This document shows, one piece after another, positions 13,229 to 35,000 of a stretch of DNA of 37,595 nucleotides (its first letter is position 1; each line of letters begins with the position of its first letter). Position numbers and translations under genes: made by a program. This DNA is from Enterobacteria phage mEp235. The notes beneath the pieces were generated by a model. That model saw only the letters and a program-made list of their open reading frames with translations, did no database searches and was not told where the DNA came from. The stretch lies in the sequence record NC_019708.1; one strand, given 5' to 3'.

Positions 13229-13453
13229 ATGTATACAGTTGGGTTTGGTTGGATCTTCGTCGGTATTTTTATTGGGTTAATTCTCTGGTTTTTCATCAAC
13301 CGCGCCAGCGTCAGAGCGAACAGGCAGGTTGAATTACTTGAGTCTATCGACCAGAAATTATCAAAAATAGTAGATCCAAACTTCGAGGCAAATAACAAAG
13401 ACCAGTCGAAAGAAAACTACCTTGAAGAAGCAAGGAAAAAAGCTGGGCTTTGA
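13229..13453 (+). CDS. small single-pass membrane protein inserted in the tail operon
   Basis: 74 aa; hydrophobic N-terminal helix then charged tail; own SD aaggag and own terminator. Confidence 0.5.
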   Translation: MYTVGFGWIFVGIFIGLILWFFINRASVRANRQVELLESIDQKLSKIVDPNFEANNKDQSKENYLEEARKKAGL

Positions 13454-14163: not shown

Positions 14164-17100
14164 ATGGCTACAGATAAAGTGTTAAAAGGCCGCAAGGGCG
14201 GCAGCTCAAGTTCCCGAACTCCTACCGAACAGCCTGATGATCTGCAATCTGTAGCGAAGGCAAAAATCCTCGTTGCGCTTGGGGAAGGTGAGTTTGCAGG
14301 GCAGCTCACCGGCAAAGATATCTACCTGGACGGAACAGCGCTGGAGAATGCTGACGGCTCCCAAAACTTCAGCGGGGTAACGTGGGAGTTTCGCGCGGGA
14401 ACTCAGGCGCAAAAATATATTCAGGGTATTCCCGGTACCGAAAACGAGATCAGCGTAGGAACTGAGGTATCAAGTGCCACAGCCTGGACGCGCACGTTTA
14501 CCAATACGCAGCTTTCAGCAGTTCGCCTGCGTCTTAAATGGCCCTCGCTTTTCAAACAGGAAGACGACGGCGATCTGGTGGGTTACTCGGTCAATTATGC
14601 GATTGACCTACAGACGGACGGCGGCACATGGCAGACGGTACTCAATACCAGCGTGACCGGAAAAACGACGTCTGGTTATGAGCGCAGCCACCGTATCGAT
14701 TTACCGCAGGCTGGCAGCACCTGGACAATACGTCTGCGTAAGATTACCTCTGACGCCAACAGCGCGAAGATCGGCGACACGATGATGCTGCAGAGCTTCA
14801 CCGAGGTGATTGACGCCAAACTGCGCTACCCGAACACCGCGCTGCTCTACGTCGAATTCGACTCAAGCCAGTTCAACGGCTCTATTCCTCAAATTTCATG
14901 CGAACCGCGCGGCCGCGTTATCCGCGTTCCAGATACCTACGACCCTGAAACCCGCACTTATAGCGGTACATGGACCGGTGCGTTTAAGTGGGCATGGACG
15001 GATAACCCTGCGTGGATTTTTTACGACCTGGTTGTTTCTGACCGGTTTGGCCTCGGGCACCGTTTGACCGCTGCGAATATTGATAAATGGACTCTTTATC
15101 AGGTTGCTCAGTATTGTGATCAGATGGTACCAGACGGCAAAGGGGGCAACGGTACAGAACCACGTTATACCTGCAACGTGTACATTCAGGACCGGAACGA
15201 CGCCTACACAGTCCTGCGTGATTTTGCCGCTATCTTCCGTGGCATGACCTACTGGGGCGGGGATCAGATTGTGGCCCTGGCTGACATGCCGCGCGATGTT
15301 GATTACAGCTATACGCGCGCTAACGTTGTTGGCGGTCGCTTCACCTATTCGAGCAGCACCACGAAAAGCCGCTACACCACAGCGCTGGTTTCATGGTCAG
15401 ATCCGGGTAACGCTTATGCCGACGCAATGGAGCCGGTATTTGAGCAGGCGCTGGTGGCGCGATACGGCTTCAATCAGCTGGAAATGACAGCCATCGGCTG
15501 CACCAGGCAGTCAGAGGCGAACCGAAAGGGGCGCTGGGGTATTCTCACCAACAACAAGGATCGCGTTGTTTCGTTTGATGTCGGGCTGGACGGAAACATT
15601 CCGCAGCCGGGCTACATCATCGCCGTGGCAGACGAGCTGCTTTCCGGAAAGGTTATGGGCGGCCGCATCAGCGCCGTTAACGGTCGCGTTATCAAACTTG
15701 ACCGCGTAGCTGATGCAGCACCAGGTGATCGCCTTATTCTCAACATGCCTTCCGGAGCGTCGCAGAGCAGGACCATTCAGGCCGTGAACGGGGAATCAGT
15801 CACAGTCACCACGGCATACAGTGAGACGCCACAGGCCGAAGCTGTTTGGGTGGTTGAATCTGACGAGCTTTACGCGCAGCAGTATCGTGTTGTCAGCGTC
15901 TCCGACAACGGTGATGGCACTTTCTCAATCACCGGCGCATGGCACGACCCGGATAAATATGCCCGCATCGATACCGGAGCCATCATTGACCAGCGGCCGG
16001 TGAGCGTGATCCCGCCTGGTAACCAGTCGCCGCCTGCGAACATCGTGATCAGCTCGTTTTCCGTGGTGCAGCAAAATATCAGCGTCGAAACGATGCGCGT
16101 GAGCTGGGACCAGGCGCAGAACGCTATCGCCTATGAAGCGCAATGGCGCCGCAACGACGGGAACTGGGTTAACGTGCCGCGCACCTCCACCACGTCATTC
16201 GACGTCCCGGGGATTTATGCCGGGCGCTACCTGGTGCGGGTGCGCGCAATCAATGCCGCAGAAATTTCATCCGGATGGGGCTATTCAGAAGAGAAAACGC
16301 TGACGGGTAAAGTGGGCAATCCACCGAAGCCGGTTGGCTTTATCGCCTCTGAAAACGTGGTGTTCGGTATCGAGCTGAACTGGGGATTCCCGGCGAATAC
16401 CGACGACACGCTGAAGACGGAAATTCAGTACAGCCTGACCGGTACTGAAGACGATGCCATGCTGCTGGCCGATGTGCCTTACCCGCAGCGCAAATATCAG
16501 CAGATGGGCCTTAAGGCTGGGCAGATTTTCTGGTACCGCGCGCAGCTGGTTGACCGCAGCGGTAACGAGTCAGGTTATACCGGCTGGGTTCGTGGGCAGG
16601 CCAGTATCGATGTTTCTGACATCACAGATGTGATCCTTGAAGACATCAAAGGGGCTGAGACGTTCAAAGACCTGATCGAGAACGCTGTGGACAGCAATGA
16701 AAAAATTGCTGGCATGGCTGACGACATCAAACAGGCCAACGATGAACTTGAACTCCAGGCGCAGGAAATCGCAAAAAACGCGCAGGACATCGGGCAGGTT
16801 CAGACCAGCGTTAATGAGCTTTCTAGCACGGTCGGTGATGTGTCGTCTTCTCTCTCAGATCTTGAGCAGACTGTTGCGACTGCTGATACCGCACTGGGCC
16901 AGCGAATCGACAGCATCAGCGTATCTATGGACGGCATGACGGGCGGGGTGAAGAACTCTGCTATCGCAATTATCCAGAACGGGCTGGCACAAGTGGCTAC
17001 GCGTAAATCGTTGTCAGCTTCGGTCGCAGGGAACAGTGCGCAGCTGGATCGTATTGATGAGGTAATCGTTAACGAGAAGGAGGCAACGGCGCGTTCTCTG

Positions 17101-17715
17101 CTGAGCCTGCAGACGGATGTCAACGGCAACAAGGCATCCATAAACAGCCTGAATCAGACGTTCTCCGACTATCAGCAGGCTACGGCCACGCAGATAAACG
17201 GCATAACGGCGACGGTGAACGGGAATACCTCCGCCATCACCACTAACGCTCAGGCGATAGCCAACGTTAATGGCGACCTCAGCGCGATGTACAACATCAA
17301 GGTTGGCGTTTCCAGCAACGGTCAGTATTACGCCGCGGGGATGGGTATCGGCGTGGAGAATACGCCATCCGGCATGCAGTCGCAGGTTATCTTCCTGGCT
17401 GATCGCTTCGCCGTCACCACGGCAGCCGGTAACAGCGTGGCTTTGCCGTTTGTGATCCAGAATGGACAGACATTCATCCGGGCCAGTTTCATCCAGGACG
17501 GCACTATCAGCAACGCAAAGATTGGTAATTTTATCCAGTCGAACAATTATGTTGCTGGTTCTGCTGGCTGGAAGCTTGATAAAGGGGGGACGTTTGAGAA
17601 CTACGGTTCGACTGCTGGTGAGGGAGCCATGAAACTGACAAATCAGACGATCAGCGTCAAAGATGGCAGTAATGTTCTTAGGGTGCAGGTTGGCCGATTA
17701 ACGGGAGTATTCTGA
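14164..17715 (+). CDS. host specificity / central tail fibre protein J-like
   Basis: 1183-aa ORF, size and position as lambda J. Confidence 0.9.
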   Translation: MATDKVLKGRKGGSSSSRTPTEQPDDLQSVAKAKILVALGEGEFAGQLTGKDIYLDGTALENADGSQNFSGVTWEFRAGTQAQKYIQGIPGTENEISVGTEVSSATAWTRTFTNTQLSAVRLRLKWPSLFKQEDDGDLVGYSVNYAIDLQTDGGTWQTVLNTSVTGKTTSGYERSHRIDLPQAGSTWTIRLRKITSDANSAKIGDTMMLQSFTEVIDAKLRYPNTALLYVEFDSSQFNGSIPQISCEPRGRVIRVPDTYDPETRTYSGTWTGAFKWAWTDNPAWIFYDLVVSDRFGLGHRLTAANIDKWTLYQVAQYCDQMVPDGKGGNGTEPRYTCNVYIQDRNDAYTVLRDFAAIFRGMTYWGGDQIVALADMPRDVDYSYTRANVVGGRFTYSSSTTKSRYTTALVSWSDPGNAYADAMEPVFEQALVARYGFNQLEMTAIGCTRQSEANRKGRWGILTNNKDRVVSFDVGLDGNIPQPGYIIAVADELLSGKVMGGRISAVNGRVIKLDRVADAAPGDRLILNMPSGASQSRTIQAVNGESVTVTTAYSETPQAEAVWVVESDELYAQQYRVVSVSDNGDGTFSITGAWHDPDKYARIDTGAIIDQRPVSVIPPGNQSPPANIVISSFSVVQQNISVETMRVSWDQAQNAIAYEAQWRRNDGNWVNVPRTSTTSFDVPGIYAGRYLVRVRAINAAEISSGWGYSEEKTLTGKVGNPPKPVGFIASENVVFGIELNWGFPANTDDTLKTEIQYSLTGTEDDAMLLADVPYPQRKYQQMGLKAGQIFWYRAQLVDRSGNESGYTGWVRGQASIDVSDITDVILEDIKGAETFKDLIENAVDSNEKIAGMADDIKQANDELELQAQEIAKNAQDIGQVQTSVNELSSTVGDVSSSLSDLEQTVATADTALGQRIDSISVSMDGMTGGVKNSAIAIIQNGLAQVATRKSLSASVAGNSAQLDRIDEVIVNEKEATARSLLSLQTDVNGNKASINSLNQTFSDYQQATATQINGITATVNGNTSAITTNAQAIANVNGDLSAMYNIKVGVSSNGQYYAAGMGIGVENTPSGMQSQVIFLADRFAVTTAAGNSVALPFVIQNGQTFIRASFIQDGTISNAKIGNFIQSNNYVAGSAGWKLDKGGTFENYGSTAGEGAMKLTNQTISVKDGSNVLRVQVGRLTGVF

Positions 17716-17716
17716 A

Positions 17717-18019
17717 ATGGCTTATGGAATACAGACCTGGGATGCTTCAGGAAAACCCAACAACTATGGCATCAAACCCGTTTCCGTCGTTGGGCGAATA
17801 CAGCTGGCTGCCGGGCAAACCTCAGGCAGCTGGTCTTTTACGGTGCCCTCAGGAATGAAAGTTGGTTTTGTTCTTTCACTTGATGAAGGAGGTAACAGCG
17901 TAGGGCGGCGCATTGTCGCGTCAGGGAGCACAATAACCGTAAGCGCTGCATCTTCTGTAGGTCTGGGTAATTATCCGGCCTCAAAGTGTGAAGTGGTCGT
18001 TTTCATGGAGAAAGCATAA
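17717..18019 (+). CDS. hypothetical protein downstream of J
   Basis: 100 aa; shares a WD-x-SGK motif with the next ORF. Confidence 0.5.
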   Translation: MAYGIQTWDASGKPNNYGIKPVSVVGRIQLAAGQTSGSWSFTVPSGMKVGFVLSLDEGGNSVGRRIVASGSTITVSAASSVGLGNYPASKCEVVVFMEKA

Positions 18020-18657
18020 TGGCCGAATTTGGCGCGATGATATTAATGGACAACGGGAACCCATTTGTAACGCCCCAGTCAACGCCTTTTTGTCTTTACG
18101 GCAAGTACACTTTCAACTCCTCTGCTAATGGCAGTTCGCAGCAGGTTGCTCAGAATATTGCATTAAATGCTGACTACCCTGTGATGGTATTTATCAGGAC
18201 CACAAATACCGCCCAGCCCACGCCAGTAATATCTTACCGGAACGGCGGAAATATATATGTCGCGGGGGTTAATCCCTATAACCAGAGCTTCACGTTAACC
18301 GCATATATTTTTGCCATATTTCCCCAGACGTTACCGAAATGGGGGATGGCCATCTGGGATTCGAGCGGGAAGCTGGTACTCACTAATGAGTCCCGCGTGC
18401 TGTCAGACTTGCAGACAATCGGAACGCCTGGAGCAAACGGCGGGATTAACATTGACCAGACGCTTGATGGTTCATGGGCAGTGGCTCCATCAAGGCTGGG
18501 GCAAGTGAACAGAAACGACGCTTACTCATCTTGTAGGTATTCAGGCACAAGTACAAGAATAAACGCCGGTACAGCCGCAAATACACCTGGCGGTGCTGGA
18601 GGGGTGATAAATAATGGAATTATCCTGACAGCAATTAAAACAGACGCCTATGACTGA
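18019..18657 (+). CDS. hypothetical protein downstream of J
   Basis: 212 aa, overlapping start, Gly/Asn/Thr-rich. Confidence 0.5.
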   Translation: MAEFGAMILMDNGNPFVTPQSTPFCLYGKYTFNSSANGSSQQVAQNIALNADYPVMVFIRTTNTAQPTPVISYRNGGNIYVAGVNPYNQSFTLTAYIFAIFPQTLPKWGMAIWDSSGKLVLTNESRVLSDLQTIGTPGANGGINIDQTLDGSWAVAPSRLGQVNRNDAYSSCRYSGTSTRINAGTAANTPGGAGGVINNGIILTAIKTDAYD

Positions 18658-18764
18658 TTGTTTTGAGCGATCAATAACAAATAATTTATCTATCTAATCA
18701 ATTATACCCATCGATTATGTATTGGTATCTTCGAAGCTACTGAATACCTCTGGATACTATCAAA

Positions 18765-18998
18765 ATGAAAAGGCTAATTATCTGCATAGCGGGCGCTTTA
18801 ATGCTGTCTGGTTGCGCTGGTGTACTTGAGAAACAGAAACCGATTTGCAGCGGCACGGCATATATGGGTGGCCATGAGAATACCGTTATGATTTACGCCG
18901 TTCGAAAGCAAAACAACCAGACGCAATACCGGGCCGGATATCCCTTTAACTGGCGCTGGGTAAGTGCGAACACATTCACAAGCACGACATGTAAATAA
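18765..18998 (+). CDS. small lipoprotein, possible Cor-like superinfection exclusion protein
   Basis: 77 aa with signal peptide and lipobox LSGC; located after the J-type tail genes where cor sits in phi80/N15-type phages. Confidence 0.5.
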   Translation: MKRLIICIAGALMLSGCAGVLEKQKPICSGTAYMGGHENTVMIYAVRKQNNQTQYRAGYPFNWRWVSANTFTSTTCK

Positions 18999-19056
18999 CT
19001 CATGATTTTCAATGCAAACCTCGCCTCGGCGGGGTTTTTTATTGCCTGGAGAAAAT

Positions 19057-20157
19057 ATGCTTTATAACACTGGAACCATCGCCATTAACGGAAACAGCGC
19101 CACCGGCACGGGCACGAACTGGACGGCACCCGCCAGCCAGGTTCGCGCTGGCCAGACGATTATCGTGATGTCTAACCCGGTGCAGCTGTTTCAGATTTCA
19201 TCCGTGAACAGCGCCATGTCAATGACGGTTACTCCAGCTGCTTCCCCGGCGCTGAGCGGCCAGAAGTATGGAATTCTTGTGTCGGACATTATCTCGGTTG
19301 ATGGGCTGGCACAGGCCATGTCACAGCTCATCAAAGAGTACGACGAGAATATTGGCGCGTGGGAGACCTTCGCCAGCACCTCAGCAAACCAGCTGGTCAC
19401 TGTGACAATCAACGGCACCAGCCTCAGCATTCCTGCCATCGGTGGTCTCGCCCGGAAAGGGGCAAATAGCGATATCACAGAGCTGAAAGGGCTAAGTACA
19501 GCATTGAGTGTTGCTCAGGGTGGGACAGGTGGCAAAAACGCTACGGACGCAGCAAATAATATTGGTGTTGGGCCTGCCAGTTATCCATTATTTTCTGGAG
19601 CGACCGTTTCGACAACAGGCTATGCAATTCTCGGAGCGCAAAATACTTCGCGAGAAGCAACGGATGTTGGGGCACGCGTTCAGCTTGAAGCGTCTATTGC
19701 TGCAAACGCTCCCGCAGTAATCATACAAAGGAATAATCAGAATAATCAGACAGGACAAATACGCTCAGTACTGCCATCAACATCTGGCACACTTGCTGTG
19801 CAGGGAACATCAGGAAGAGACTATAAAAAGAACATTTCTCCTGCGAATCCAGAAGAGGCTTTAGGAAGAATACTTGCGCTTGAGCTTGTCAATTTTGTTT
19901 ACAAGGATGATGAGAAGGATCGCCAGAGATTTGGGATTATTGCGGAAGACGCAGAAGTTATTGCTCCACAATATATTAAACACAACCAAGAACCGATTCC
20001 AGGAACGGAGGTTTTCAATGAAGATGGACACAAGATAGGAGAGGAGTTCCGTGATCGCCCATCAGTAGACAATAATCCTATTGTGATGGACCTGATTGGG
20101 TGTATTCATGGGTTGCAAAGACAAATTACCGATCTTAGACAGGAGCTTGTTGACTAA
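19057..20157 (+). CDS. tail fibre protein with C-terminal intramolecular chaperone (S74-like) domain
   Basis: SD ggag before ATG 19057; C-terminal ~120 aa resemble the self-cleaving chaperone domain of fibre and tailspike proteins. Confidence 0.65.
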   Translation: MLYNTGTIAINGNSATGTGTNWTAPASQVRAGQTIIVMSNPVQLFQISSVNSAMSMTVTPAASPALSGQKYGILVSDIISVDGLAQAMSQLIKEYDENIGAWETFASTSANQLVTVTINGTSLSIPAIGGLARKGANSDITELKGLSTALSVAQGGTGGKNATDAANNIGVGPASYPLFSGATVSTTGYAILGAQNTSREATDVGARVQLEASIAANAPAVIIQRNNQNNQTGQIRSVLPSTSGTLAVQGTSGRDYKKNISPANPEEALGRILALELVNFVYKDDEKDRQRFGIIAEDAEVIAPQYIKHNQEPIPGTEVFNEDGHKIGEEFRDRPSVDNNPIVMDLIGCIHGLQRQITDLRQELVD

Positions 20158-20475
20158 AGCCTTTTAGTAAAATCTTGATTTCAGGAATCAAAACTTCCAT
20201 TGGTTAGATAGGTTGGATTAGTGAAAAAACCGCAAATCCTAGACCGACAGAGCGAGGAACATTCACGGATTGTTTACAATATGCAATGCTGCAGTCACGC
20301 AATAATTAACGGGCTGCGGCAGCGGCCAGGTTGTTCATGCCCTGGCGAGTGCAGAAAGTATATAATTTAATAATGCGGTCACCACATGTTTTGCCCGATT
20401 TTGGTTGCCGTACTGATAGCCTCAGCCGGTTCTTTGAATAATCTTGCGGTAGCCAGACTCCAACTCCCACTCCTT

Positions 20476-20519
20476 TGACAAAAAATTAGCGCAAGAAGAC
20501 AAAAATCACCTTGCGCTAA
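20476..20519 (-). terminator. tI/sib-like hairpin terminator downstream of int
   Basis: 10-bp perfect inverted repeat TTAGCGCAAG/CTTGCGCTAA with 14-nt loop, U-run on minus strand; same position and near-identical to lambda sib/tI as recalled. Confidence 0.6.
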
Positions 20520-20524
20520 TGCTC

Positions 20525-20760
20525 TGTCTCAGGTCACTAATACTATCTAAGTAGTTGATTCATAGTGACTGGATATGTTGCGTTTTGTCGCATTATGTAG
20601 TCTATCATTTAACCACAGATTAGTGTAATGCGATGATTTTTAAGTGATTAATGTTATTTTGTCATCCTTTAGGTGAATAAGTTGTATATTTAAAATCTCT
20701 TTAATTATCAGTAAATTAATGTAAGTAGGTCATTATTAGTCAAAATAAAATCATTTGTCG
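20525..20760. other. attP: lambda-type arm sites with HK022-type core
   Basis: P1 CAGGTCACTAATAC 20530-20543, P2 20561-20572, core ATCCTTTAGGTGAATAAGTTG 20664-20684, P' arms 20727-20755 overlapping int 3' end. Confidence 0.75.
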
Positions 20761-21824
20761 ATTTCAATTTTGTCCCATTCCCGTCCACGGCTGTCCCTAT
20801 ACCGCGCCGCCATTGAATCTGATTTATGCCCGAGAAGACGTTGAGCAAACTTATCGCCAATCTGGTTCCGGTATAGCCTCGCTGACAGGCTACGCAGTTC
20901 ATGGAATGTTGGCGGGTTTCCATCAAATGAGAGTCCAGATGCATTTCTCGCCTTTGTAAAATACTTTGATACTGTTTTCGGGGAAAGCGGATCGTGATGC
21001 TTTGATGCGATTATAGTTTCACTGCTGCTGGCCTCCCTGCATTGCTGTAGTGTATCAGCCAATGAGATATTGAGCGCGTCAATCGTTAGCGTTAGTGGAA
21101 TGGCGAGTTTAGCCCCTGTTTTACTCTGTTCAATGTGAAGATGGTTGTCGTTTATGTCTGACCATTTCATTCTGCACAAATCGCCTACTCTCTGCCCTGT
21201 AACGACAGCCAAATCCATTGCCAGTCTCAGCCAGATTGGGAGCGGTTCGGCCGCATGGTATATCGCGACATATTCATTAGCTGTCAGTCTTGAACGCCTT
21301 ACTTCTGATTTTGCTGTGCGGGTTGCTGTTACCGGATTCGTAGCCACATGCCCCTCGGCTATTGCCTCACGAAAAACGTCAACAAGGGTTGACCTGATTA
21401 ATTTTGCGGAAGCCGATTTGCCTTCTGCTACGTAGGTGTTTAGCATTGCTGCCACCTCTTTCGTTGATATGTCAGCGAGCGGTTTGTCAGGCAATTTTCT
21501 TCGGATTGCTCTGATTTTGCTGGCGTAGTCGAGTAGAGTTTTCGGCCTGATACCCCTCTCGCTGAGGATTGTTTCATATCGGTCAAGCCACGCATGAAGA
21601 GTGATTGCGTCAGCGCCTTTAATTCTGTCTATCAGTGACTCACGCCTGTTCCCGGATAGCAACTCAATGTTGGCCTGTATAGCTTCAGTGATTGCGATTC
21701 GCCTGTCTCGGCCTAATCCAAACTCTTTACCCGTCCTTGGGTCCCTGTAGCAGTAATATCCATTGTTTCTTATATAAAGGTTAGGGGGTAAATCCCGGCG
21801 CTCATGACTTCGCCTTCTTCCCAT
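20751..21824 (-). CDS. int: integrase, lambda-family tyrosine recombinase
   Basis: 357 aa, N-terminus MGRRRSHERRDLPPNLYIRNNGYYCYRDPRTGKEFGLGRDRR and C-terminus near-identical to lambda Int as recalled. Confidence 0.95.
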   Translation of the reverse strand: MGRRRSHERRDLPPNLYIRNNGYYCYRDPRTGKEFGLGRDRRIAITEAIQANIELLSGNRRESLIDRIKGADAITLHAWLDRYETILSERGIRPKTLLDYASKIRAIRRKLPDKPLADISTKEVAAMLNTYVAEGKSASAKLIRSTLVDVFREAIAEGHVATNPVTATRTAKSEVRRSRLTANEYVAIYHAAEPLPIWLRLAMDLAVVTGQRVGDLCRMKWSDINDNHLHIEQSKTGAKLAIPLTLTIDALNISLADTLQQCREASSSETIIASKHHDPLSPKTVSKYFTKARNASGLSFDGNPPTFHELRSLSARLYRNQIGDKFAQRLLGHKSDSMAARYRDSRGREWDKIEIDK

Positions 21825-34540: not shown

Positions 34541-35000
34541 TCAACGTAAGGCGTTCCTCGATATGCTGGCATGGTCAGAGGGAACTGATAACGGACGTCA
34601 GAAAACCAGAAATCATGGTTATGACGTCATTGTAGGCGGAGAGCTATTCACTGATTACTCCGATCACCCTCGCAAACTTGTCACGCTAAACCCCAAACTC
34701 AAATCAACAGCAGCCGGACGTTACCAGCTTCTTTCCCGTTGGTGGGACGCCTACCGTAAGCAGCTTGGCCTGAAAGACTTCTCTCCTAAAAGCCAGGATG
34801 CTGTTGCATTGCAGCAGATTAAGGAGCGTGGCGCTTTGCCGATGATTGATCGCGGTGATATCCGTCAGGCAATCGACCGTTGCAGCAATATCTGGGCTTC
34901 ACTGCCTGGCGCTGGTTATGGTCAGTTCGAGCATAAGGCTGACAGCCTGATTGCAAAATTCAAAGAAGCAGGCGGAACGGTCAGAGAGATTGAGGTATGA
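34524..35000 (+). CDS. R: endolysin R (lytic transglycosylase)
   Basis: 158 aa starting [24 protein letters not shown]. Confidence 0.9.

Follow-up and report, generated by a model that had tools for sequence, protein, structure and literature searches.

The gene cluster downstream of J

The window, that is, the whole 37,595-nucleotide stretch of Enterobacteria phage mEp235 DNA that was analysed (NC_019708.1), carries the tail tip gene J at positions 14164–17715, followed on the same plus strand by four open reading frames. These frames, listed in a first-pass annotation of the sequence, were borne out at 17717–18019, 18019–18657, 18765–18998 and 19012–20157 and encode 100, 212, 77 and 381 aa, respectively. 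Bases 17500–20400 matched genes 24–28 of phage HK022 almost exactly in one gap-free alignment over the full 2,901 bases. Because this near-exact match covers HK022 genes 25–28 in full length, the mEp235 cluster has already been published. It is HK022 sequence and ordinary apart from one modest new link, which concerns the products of genes 25 and 26. Searches of the window identified no Rfam family and no relevant repeats.

The 77-aa protein is the product of HK022 gene 27, cor (18765–18998), an outer-membrane lipoprotein of superinfection exclusion. The first-pass annotation had noted a lipoprotein in the usual position of the Cor type and had proposed an alignment with Cor proteins as a check. 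The protein turned out to be 100% identical to HK022 Cor. It matched the NCBIfam equivalog NF047972 'phage exclusion lipoprotein Cor' with 138.8 bits (cutoff 31; aa 1–76 on profile positions 1–76 of 78) and phrog_1119 at 2.4e-37, and its residues G16, C17, C28 and C76 recur unchanged in Cor of T1 and of ES18. The lipobox LSGC (L14-S15-G16-C17, nt 18804–18815), read directly from the sequence, is MKRLIICIAGALMLSG/C with Ala at position +2, a residue that would be compatible with sorting to the outer membrane. The hydrophobic maximum lies at aa 4–22, and the signal peptide is the sole strongly hydrophobic stretch of the protein. As in mEp235, cor adjoins the J/receptor-recognition locus in HK022, HK544, T1 and ES18, whose FhuA dependence is taken from the literature (PMC13164509, PMC3594210). 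Exclusion of FhuA-dependent phages and inactivation of FhuA have been reported for Cor of HK022, N15, phi80 and mEp167 (PMC3594210, citing Uc-Mass et al. 2004). Cor has been described as inactivating FhuA and as having a predicted fold in common with Llp (PMC3594210; preprints 10.64898/2026.03.26.714494 and PMC13164509). By analogy with these identical or orthologous proteins, mEp235 Cor would inactivate FhuA. A lysogen or infected cell would then exclude FhuA-dependent phages, and progeny would not be wasted on cell debris. A search of solved structures with the Cor sequence gave nothing meaningful. Alignments of a three-sequence Cor profile to T5 Llp (8a60_B, E 1.1) and Rtp45 (9rps_D, E 0.73) covered the signal peptide only, were not significant and were discarded.

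The AT-rich spacer noticed ahead of the lipoprotein gene measures 107 bp (18658–18764) and has a GC content of 30%, compared with about 50% for the window; cor itself has 47% GC versus 55% for J. The terminator-like hairpin seen behind the gene also held up. It consists of a nine-pair stem (hairpin 19016–19037) followed by a T-run and forms a Rho-independent terminator at 19016–19043, which folded as RNA with −16.1 kcal/mol (z −2.8). The HK544 annotation has a terminator at the corresponding site, and in ES18 another one is annotated nearby. Klebsiella weberviruses lack cor, and T1 and ES18 have it in inverted orientation. With its own terminator, its deviant composition and its absence or inversion in relatives, cor shows features of a moron (Juhala et al. 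2000), and the HK022 record labels it 'moron gene product'. Since it has an AT-rich upstream spacer and a terminator of its own, cor could be expressed from the prophage without the fibre gene. No consensus promoter was found upstream of cor; the best sigma-70-like site in the spacer (TTGTTT, 16 nt, AATAAT at 18658–18685) is weak and agrees at 8 of 12 positions. The promoter of the moron would probably lie in this spacer, and anti-terminated late transcription may read through the cor terminator.

The last gene of the cluster encodes the side tail fibre gp28 (19057–20157, 366 aa, as annotated in HK022), which combines an N-terminal anchor similar to lambda Stf with a distal tip of the T5 type. 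The first ATG of the 381-aa reading frame, at 19012, lies inside the cor terminator. A start at 19057 is supported by the HK022 record, by a ribosome binding site (GGAG, 19047–19050) and by homologues that begin at MLYNTG. Most likely, the fibre therefore starts at 19057 and not at 19012. The protein matched the tail-fibre families phrog_1980, phrog_1591 and phrog_12714. Its residues 2–97 matched the N-termini of Klebsiella phage depolymerases (7lzj/7vyv), and residues 197–362 matched the solved chain 8hqz_d ('L-shaped tail fiber assembly') with an E-value of 4.8e-46. The chaperone-domain fibre predicted in the first-pass annotation was confirmed by a Peptidase_S74 match (PF13884) within the last 115 aa (1.1e-9; 38.9 bits versus a gathering score of 22; profile positions 3–56 of 58). 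This domain begins at Ser252 and extends over 19810–20154. The gp28 motif SGRDYKK aligned with SGIEYKK of 8hqz_d, which places Lys257 five residues past Ser252. As in endosialidase and T5 pb1, this Ser/Lys pair would be catalytic. Judged by the close match to 8hqz_d, the C-terminus of gp28 would have the chaperone fold. By analogy, gp28 would form a trimeric side fibre in which the S74 domain first assists folding and is then released by self-cleavage at Ser252. Such self-chaperoning would account for the fact that no separate fibre-assembly gene follows gp28. The GC content at third codon positions drops from 0.60 in the N-terminal half of the gene to 0.34 in the C-terminal half, and near 19540 the gene ceases to resemble HK544-type phages at the nucleotide level; consequently, the fibre gene is a mosaic. 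Both the Cor exclusion gene and the chaperone-tipped side fibre are well known, and there is nothing new about them.

A repeated module in gp25 and gp26

The two genes directly behind J encode gp25 (17717–18019, 100 aa) and gp26 (18019–18657, 212 aa). The ATG of gene 25 lies 1 nt past the J stop codon, and the stop codon of gene 25 overlaps the start of gene 26. gp25 matched phrog_557 at 2.4e-36 and had 157 homologues. [quoted passage not shown] Pfam and NCBIfam contained no family for either protein, and sequence searches of solved structures with gp25, gp26 and a gp26 profile gave nothing meaningful. A sub-threshold match of gp25 to Tailspike_C (15.8 bits versus 27) was not relied on.

The first-pass annotation had pointed to a WD-(A/S)-SGK motif common to the 100-aa and the 212-aa protein and had suggested divergent duplication. 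The motif occurs as YGIQTWDASGK at aa 3–13 of gp25 (17723–17755) and as WGMAIWDSSGK at aa 108–118 in the middle of gp26 (18340–18372). Such a short match might be a product of chance or convergence between two unrelated proteins. The pairwise BLASTP E-value is 0.018, shallow first alignments (A1, A2) aligned only the 12–13 columns of the motif and gave E 0.4 for the N-terminal versus the C-terminal half of gp26, and a Foldseek search of BFVD with gp25 was empty at E ≤ 0.001. Against this stands a permutation test, in which the score of 40 for the best ungapped 11-mer of gp25 and gp26 (BLOSUM62) was reached by 17 of 20,000 shuffled gp26 sequences. Moreover, neither protein family shows any change in the motif residues across distant phages; in gp25, for instance, G4, W8, D9 and G12 are unchanged in HK022, T1, ES18 and a Klebsiella phage. 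Thus the match between the motifs is genuine.

With a diverse gp26 alignment, built from an exhaustive search of representatives, hhalign extended the similarity beyond the motif. Full-length gp25 aligned with the N-terminal half of gp26 over 90 columns (probability 74%, E 2.9e-5), and with the C-terminal half the alignment of gp25 was confined to the motif (86%, E 4.7e-6). The N-terminal half of gp26 aligned with its own C-terminal half (63%, E 7e-5) and thereby revealed a third, weaker copy of the motif at aa 3–15 (EFGAMILMDNGNP, 18025–18063), which matches the mid-protein copy and is conserved across the family. Reversed or column-shuffled controls of these comparisons reached E-values of 0.025–0.56. 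The predicted architectures of the two proteins are also alike and comprise a disordered motif followed by a seven-strand sandwich; in the AF2 model of gp25 the beta-sandwich comprises aa 23–99 and aa 1–19 are of low confidence. Taken together, we regard a chance resemblance between unrelated proteins as most improbable. Judged by these alignments, gp25 and gp26 are three copies of one module, a motif strand [YFW]G-x-x-I-W-D-x-x-G followed by a variable beta-sandwich, with one module in gp25 and two in gp26. The proposed duplication was consequently borne out, with three module copies instead of two.

A link to solved receptor-binding proteins was obtained for gp26. An hhalign comparison with the Rtp44/DUF6453 family aligned gp26 aa 55–135 with Rtp44 aa 156–234 (73 columns, E 1e-6, probability 91%), and reversed and shuffled controls gave E-values of at least 0.19; the hhalign probabilities for the module repeats and for this link are moderate (63–91%). 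An earlier register, in which modules 1 and 2 of gp26 lay on modules 1 and 2 of Rtp44, had a probability of 15% in the first hhalign run and was replaced by the register of the diverse alignment. In a fold comparison the gp26 model showed the same predicted fold as the solved DUF6453 receptor-binding protein. The Pfam model DUF6453 (PF20051), carried by all Rtp44 homologues, did not match gp25, gp26 or ten distant gp26 relatives at E-values up to 0.1. Therefore, gp26 is a remote homologue only and does not count as DUF6453 by Pfam standards. P0386, a distant relative of 307 aa, was tried as a bridge to DUF6453 and had no Pfam match. For gp25, hhalign against the Rtp44 family gave no signal (E 0.22). 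Within these bounds, gp26 can be grouped, by structure and by descent, with the solved LptD-binding receptor-binding protein of the small siphophages Oekolampad and Rtp.

Proposed receptor binding and docking on the J tip

In T1, ES18 and Klebsiella weberviruses, too, J is followed by a gp25-like and then a gp26-like gene, and the cassette has been reported in the FhuA-dependent phages T1, HK022, N15, ES18 and phi80 (PMC13164509). Receptor specificity is tracked by loci downstream of gpJ (PMC8594841; preprint 10.64898/2026.04.02.716166), and for the LptD type a structure exists of the receptor in complex with the protein whose gene lies downstream of J (PMC12685063). From their gene positions, gp25 and gp26 would be late structural proteins that are translationally coupled to J. 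Most likely, as far as can be judged from sequence comparison, they form the FhuA-binding module, with Cor as the cognate exclusion protein. The term 'accessory', under which the first-pass annotation had filed the two small proteins, is thus probably wrong for what is likely the primary receptor-binding module. The same annotation had named the fibre as the usual host-range determinant. Since primary receptor binding is likely the task of gp25 and gp26, receptor specificity in mEp235 probably does not depend mainly on the side fibre; gp28 probably mediates reversible binding to surface glycans rather than receptor-triggered DNA ejection.

Alternatively, gp25 and gp26 might be absent from the virion and act as membrane-associated helpers of Cor-mediated superinfection exclusion. 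Such a function would agree with the PHROG names, with the tight genomic linkage to cor in FhuA-dependent phages, and with a published proposal of a superinfection-exclusion-related role, made after no Foldseek or HHpred match had been found for either protein (PMC13164509). The linkage is visible in the numbers of phage records: we found 348 with a gp26 homologue and 235 with Cor, and outside Klebsiella the two counts are nearly equal (178 versus 175 for Escherichia, 20 versus 20 for 'Enterobacteria'). In Klebsiella phages, however, 111 records with a gp26 homologue face a single one with cor, and the webervirus SegesCirculi has the gp25-like/gp26-like pair after J without cor. Signal peptides, lipoboxes and transmembrane or otherwise hydrophobic segments are absent from both proteins (maximum Kyte-Doolittle hydropathy over 19 residues 1.27 for gp25 and 0.82 for gp26), which argues further against membrane-associated helpers. 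Translation of genes 25 and 26 is coupled to that of J within the late operon; cor, by contrast, is set apart by a spacer and a terminator of its own and in T1 and ES18 is even encoded by the other strand. Finally, gp26 is homologous to a solved receptor-binding protein by structure and by profile. The helper function is accordingly very unlikely.

The second alternative assigns FhuA binding to the C-terminus of J itself and leaves gp25 and gp26 to assist assembly as chaperones or to decorate the tail tip without being essential. This would follow the classical lambda paradigm, in which J binds LamB, and several papers name the J homologue as the receptor-binding protein of T1-like phages (PMC11447400, PMC10373560). 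In mEp235, J has Pfam matches to FNIII-A_GpJ and to Phage_Tail_Tip, the latter at aa 1024–1158, and a 2026 preprint also ties features of the GpJ C-terminal tip to specificity. A receptor-specific J tip should differ between phages with different receptors, but the opposite was observed. The last 90 aa of J (17443–17712) are 48–66% identical to those of T1, ES18, a Klebsiella webervirus and the LptD-dependent phage Rtp. The J tip is thus conserved whatever the receptor. In addition, it is the protein encoded downstream of J that was solved on the receptor in the LptD type, and gp26 is its homologue. Direct binding of FhuA by J is therefore rather unlikely, and we favour gp25 and gp26 as the receptor-binding module.

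How this module could be attached to the tail is suggested by the pattern of conservation. In both gp25 and gp26, conservation is highest in the motif segments (44–82% identity versus 13–58% for the sandwich bodies), and within gp26 the segment aa 96–134 is the most conserved (51–82% versus 13–37% for aa 28–95). Despite this conservation, the motif segments have pLDDT values below 50 in the monomer models. We infer that gp25 and gp26 use these segments to attach non-covalently to the J trimer at its conserved C-terminal tip, where the last 90 aa of J would provide the platform. gp25 might then serve as the tail-proximal adaptor, and the variable sandwiches of gp26 would present the FhuA-binding surface. 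In the cryo-EM structure of T1, J residues 821–1172 or anything attached to them were not resolved (PMC11945409). An apparent J-gp26 fusion protein (P0303) was recognized as a chimera in which J residues 713 to about 860 are joined to gp26 from residue 55 onwards. It is consistent with a deletion derivative and hence no evidence for a physical association of J and gp26.

Altogether, the cluster is quite probably the end of the tail operon devoted to host recognition in an FhuA-dependent lambdoid phage of the HK022 type. The chances are about even for a more specific proposal, namely that gp25 and gp26 are a split three-module FhuA receptor-binding protein, which has its ancestry in common with the single-chain LptD-binding DUF6453 proteins and docks on the conserved J tip via its [YFW]G-x-x-I-W-D-x-x-G strand motifs. 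If the proposal is true, the long-sought FhuA-binding protein of T1, phi80, N15 and HK022 has been identified, and the families downstream of J, described as 'unrelated' in a recent preprint, have diverged from one plug-in receptor-binding protein. The new link itself is that two 'hypothetical' proteins, which one recent paper could not place, are three repeats of one module, and that gp26 is remotely homologous to a solved receptor-binding protein. It opens a cheap route to what binds FhuA in T1, phi80 and HK022-type phages. It also suggests that J serves as a common platform on which the receptor cassettes encoded behind it can be exchanged for one another; if so, this would be relevant to the re-targeting of siphophages.

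Comparison with known systems

The closest counterpart of the cluster is formed by genes 25, 26, 27 (cor) and 28 of HK022 (GenBank AF069308; Juhala et al. 2000). Both phages have these genes in identical order with attP and int behind them, and there is no difference between the two in this region. Elsewhere mEp235 departs from HK022, which covers 68% of the first 25 kb.

Like T5 Llp (PDB 8A60), Cor is a small lipoprotein encoded beside the receptor-recognition genes of FhuA-dependent phages. In contrast to Cor, the mechanism of T5 Llp has been solved experimentally, and the relation between the two is below sequence detection here (E 1.1). The fibre gp28 resembles T5 pb1 (chain 8hqz_d) and the endosialidase-type proteins in its C-terminal S74 domain with a Ser/Lys pair. 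At 366 aa it is far shorter than the T5-type L-shaped fibre (1076 aa), and unlike there its tip is grafted onto an N-terminal anchor of the lambda Stf/N15 gp25 type, with the junction near nt 19540.

The receptor-binding proteins of Rtp and Oekolampad (Rtp44; PDB 9RPT/9RQI) have the repeated organisation of motif plus sandwich in common with gp25 and gp26. In Rtp44, three motif-like stretches can be recognized by eye. As in the Rtp44 type, the mEp235 genes directly follow a J homologue with a conserved C-terminal tip and adjoin an exclusion lipoprotein, which is Rtp45 in Rtp. In Rtp both of these genes, for the receptor-binding protein and for the lipoprotein, lie on the strand opposite to J. 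The receptor is LptD for Rtp44 and the Oekolampad protein and FhuA for the HK022 type. Finally, a single gene encodes the 311-aa receptor-binding protein of Rtp, whereas in mEp235 the corresponding protein is apparently distributed over two genes of 100 and 212 aa.

Locus identity and the cor moron

HK022 (AF069308) aligned with window positions 17500-20400 in one gap-free alignment of all 2,901 bases, and the 2025 GenBank record for mEp235, PV340540.1, gave a 100% match to the first 25 kb of the window. In this stretch the HK022 record names a J-like minor tail protein (gene 24), two hypothetical genes (25 and 26), "cor protein; moron gene product; phage exclusion" (gene 27) and "minor tail protein, lambda stf-like" (gene 28); attP and the integrase gene come next. 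Thus, the genes concerned were published in 2000, cor was also studied experimentally, and the gene cluster, taken as a whole, was known before. The four open reading frames claimed by the first-pass annotation were present at exactly the positions it had proposed. Overall, its observations were confirmed, and the analysis supported its interpretation.

The 77-aa protein (18765-18998), previously suggested to be a Cor-type lipoprotein, was 100% identical to HK022 Cor. It matched the NCBIfam equivalog "phage exclusion lipoprotein Cor" with 138.8 bits (cutoff 31) and phrog_1119 with 2.4e-37. The lipobox LSGC was present with Cys17, and Cys17, Cys28, Cys76 and the motif RAGYPF were invariant in Cor of T1 and ES18. 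Cor of HK022, N15 and phi80 reportedly inactivates FhuA and thereby protects lysogens from FhuA-dependent phages (PMC3594210). HK022 Cor is predicted to have a fold in common with T5 Llp, whose structure in complex with FhuA was solved (preprint 10.64898/2026.03.26.714494; PMC13164509). Sequence comparison did not confirm the Cor-Llp relationship (E 1.1).

The AT-rich spacer before cor (18658-18764, 30% GC) was also recovered, as was the terminator-like hairpin on its 3' side (19016-19037; nine pairs, then a T-run; -16.1 kcal/mol, z -2.8). A terminator is annotated at the equivalent position in HK544. Terminator and spacer fit the description of cor as a moron. A promoter search for cor revealed only a weak promoter-like site with an 8/12 match. 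In T1 (locus L004, 3715-3942) and ES18 (locus L005, 3336-3578) cor occupies the same place on the strand opposite to genes 25 and 26. Such inversion with retained linkage fits independent moron mobility together with selection for co-inheritance with the putative FhuA-binding genes.

Two further features were observed nearby. A 74-aa YebO-like protein (13229-13453; Pfam PF13974, 1.8e-12; phrog_5031) is encoded between tail genes K and I within a local GC dip (0.45) and looks like a further moron inside the tail operon. At 20472-20533 (minus strand) the arms of an inverted repeat, TTAGCGCAAG and CTTGCGCTAA, are separated by 14 nt and precede a T-run on that strand; the loop is too long to be reported by the terminator scan. 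The repeat borders the annotated attP (about 20531-20757), with a small overlap, at the end distal to int (20751-21824, minus strand). It is reminiscent of a terminator or of a sib-like hairpin for retroregulation of int.

A mosaic side fibre

The fibre gene had been proposed to start at 19012. Its open reading frame was present, and the start was corrected, the ATG at 19012 lying inside the terminator. We assign the gene (gp28) to 19057-20157, encoding 366 aa, because of the HK022 annotation, a GGAG located six bases before this ATG and homologues starting with MLYNTG. The anticipated chaperone-like C-terminus was identified as Pfam Peptidase_S74 ("chaperone of endosialidase"; 38.9 bits, threshold 22). 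Residues 197-362 matched the solved chain 8hqz_d of an "L-shaped tail fiber assembly" (E 4.8e-46), and the alignment of SGRDYKK with SGIEYKK of 8hqz_d places the presumed Ser252/Lys257 pair. A fibre that includes its own chaperone is expected to lack a separate assembly gene, and none follows gp28.

The N-terminal 97 residues were similar to anchor domains of Klebsiella phage depolymerases. The fibre gene is a mosaic. Near 19540 it loses its nucleotide similarity to HK544, HK106 and mEpX-type phages, and its GC3 decreases from 0.60 to 0.34. The distal part (19540-20157) had its nearest match in the C-terminus of 8hqz_d, which suggests that fibre tip and chaperone originated in a low-GC phage lineage.

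A repeated module in gp25 and gp26

Gene 25 (17717-18019, 100 aa) starts one base past the stop codon of the tail-tip gene J (14164-17715), and gene 26 (18019-18657, 212 aa) overlaps the stop codon of gene 25. Both therefore look like products of the late tail operon. [quoted passage not shown] PV340540.1 carries two short coding sequences instead of gp25 (34655-34950, equal to window 17717-18019): an ORF of 44 aa that is read in a different frame (window 17724-17858) and a fragment of gp25 without its N-terminus (window 17855-18019). Faulty gene calling is the probable cause, because the 100-aa gene is backed by the HK022 annotation and 157 homologues.

The reported shared motif was found as YGIQTWDASGK in gp25 (aa 3-13) and WGMAIWDSSGK in gp26 (aa 108-118); BLASTP of the two proteins gave E 0.018. 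AF2 models contained one beta-sandwich in gp25 (aa 23-99) and two in gp26 (aa 23-100 and 131-212), each preceded by approximately 20 very-low-confidence residues that include the motif. Among HK022, T1, ES18 and a Klebsiella phage, conservation in both families was highest in these segments (44-82% identity vs 13-58% in the sandwich bodies).

Profile comparison with shallow alignments was limited to the motif. In an exhaustive profile search the family proved small, with 128 cluster representatives, and from these a 50-sequence alignment was built. With it, gp25 aligned to the N-terminal half of gp26 over 90 columns (74%, E 2.9e-5) and to the C-terminal half at the motif (86%, E 4.7e-6), and the two halves of gp26 aligned with each other (63%, E 7e-5), compared with E 0.025-0.56 for reversed or column-shuffled templates. 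A chance likeness is excluded by these controls and by shuffling, in which the motif score of 40 (ungapped 11-mer) was equalled or exceeded in 17 of 20,000 cases. Thus, the analysis supports the postulated divergent duplication and brings the number of module copies to three.

Several homologues deserve mention. In the Klebsiella phage vB_KpnS_SegesCirculi (locus L007, 2687-3660) gp25-like and gp26-like genes lie directly 3' of J, and cor is absent. Recognisable similarity of gp26 from Klebsiella T1-like phages is limited to aa 1-163 (about 34% identity). Eight "Campylobacter phage" records (e.g., MG065688, MG065637, MG065687) contain homologues of both gp26 and Cor of the kind usual in T1-like coliphages and may be mislabelled or contaminant sequences. 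In two database proteins, P0303 (337 aa) and P0106 (188 aa), a central portion of J (residues 713 to about 860 of the J encoded in the window) is joined directly to gp26 from approximately residue 55. We rejected them as functional fusions; they look like decayed-prophage deletion derivatives or assembly artefacts.

A putative FhuA-recognition module

Profile alignment linked the gp26 family to the receptor-binding protein (RBP) family Rtp44 (Pfam DUF6453) of the LptD-dependent phage Rtp with 91% probability (E 1e-6; controls ≥0.19). No significant link to Rtp44 was obtained for gp25 (E 0.22). The Rtp44 gene directly follows the J homologue of Rtp and adjoins the gene for the exclusion lipoprotein Rtp45.

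The last 90 residues of J showed 48-66% identity among this phage, T1, ES18, a Klebsiella webervirus and Rtp, which argues for a common platform rather than a receptor-specific part. Direct binding of FhuA by J is weakened accordingly, since its tip is conserved independently of the receptor. In the phage collection 348 records contained a gp26 homologue and 235 contained Cor; Klebsiella phages contributed 111 of the gp26 records vs one of the cor records, and outside Klebsiella the counts were nearly equal. The webervirus examined, SegesCirculi, had the gp25-like/gp26-like pair behind J and lacked cor.

The Rtp44 profile match, the architecture, the J tip and the co-occurrence, considered alongside comparative-genomics papers (PMC8594841; preprint 10.64898/2026.04.02.716166; PMC13164509), are best read as pointing to gp25 and gp26 as a putative FhuA-recognition module. 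The pair would dock on the J tip via the conserved motif segments, gp26 would bear the receptor-binding surface and Cor would be the cognate exclusion factor. An alternative role as helpers of Cor-mediated exclusion (PMC13164509) is contradicted, because neither protein has an export signal, their genes are coupled to J, the pair persists where cor is missing and gp26 is homologous to an RBP.

The cryo-EM study of T1 left the gp25/gp26 region unresolved (PMC11945409). What the present analysis adds is limited to two placements: gp25 and gp26 consist of repeats of a single module, and gp26 is a distant homologue of a solved RBP, the one of Oekolampad. These placements sharpen an existing hypothesis on the FhuA binder of T1, phi80 and HK022-type phages and make it easy to test. 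By eye, Rtp44 contains three motif-like stretches in 311 aa, compared with 100 + 212 aa in gp25 and gp26. The docking mode on J, an adaptor role for gp25 and the idea of a "split RBP" are our inferences.
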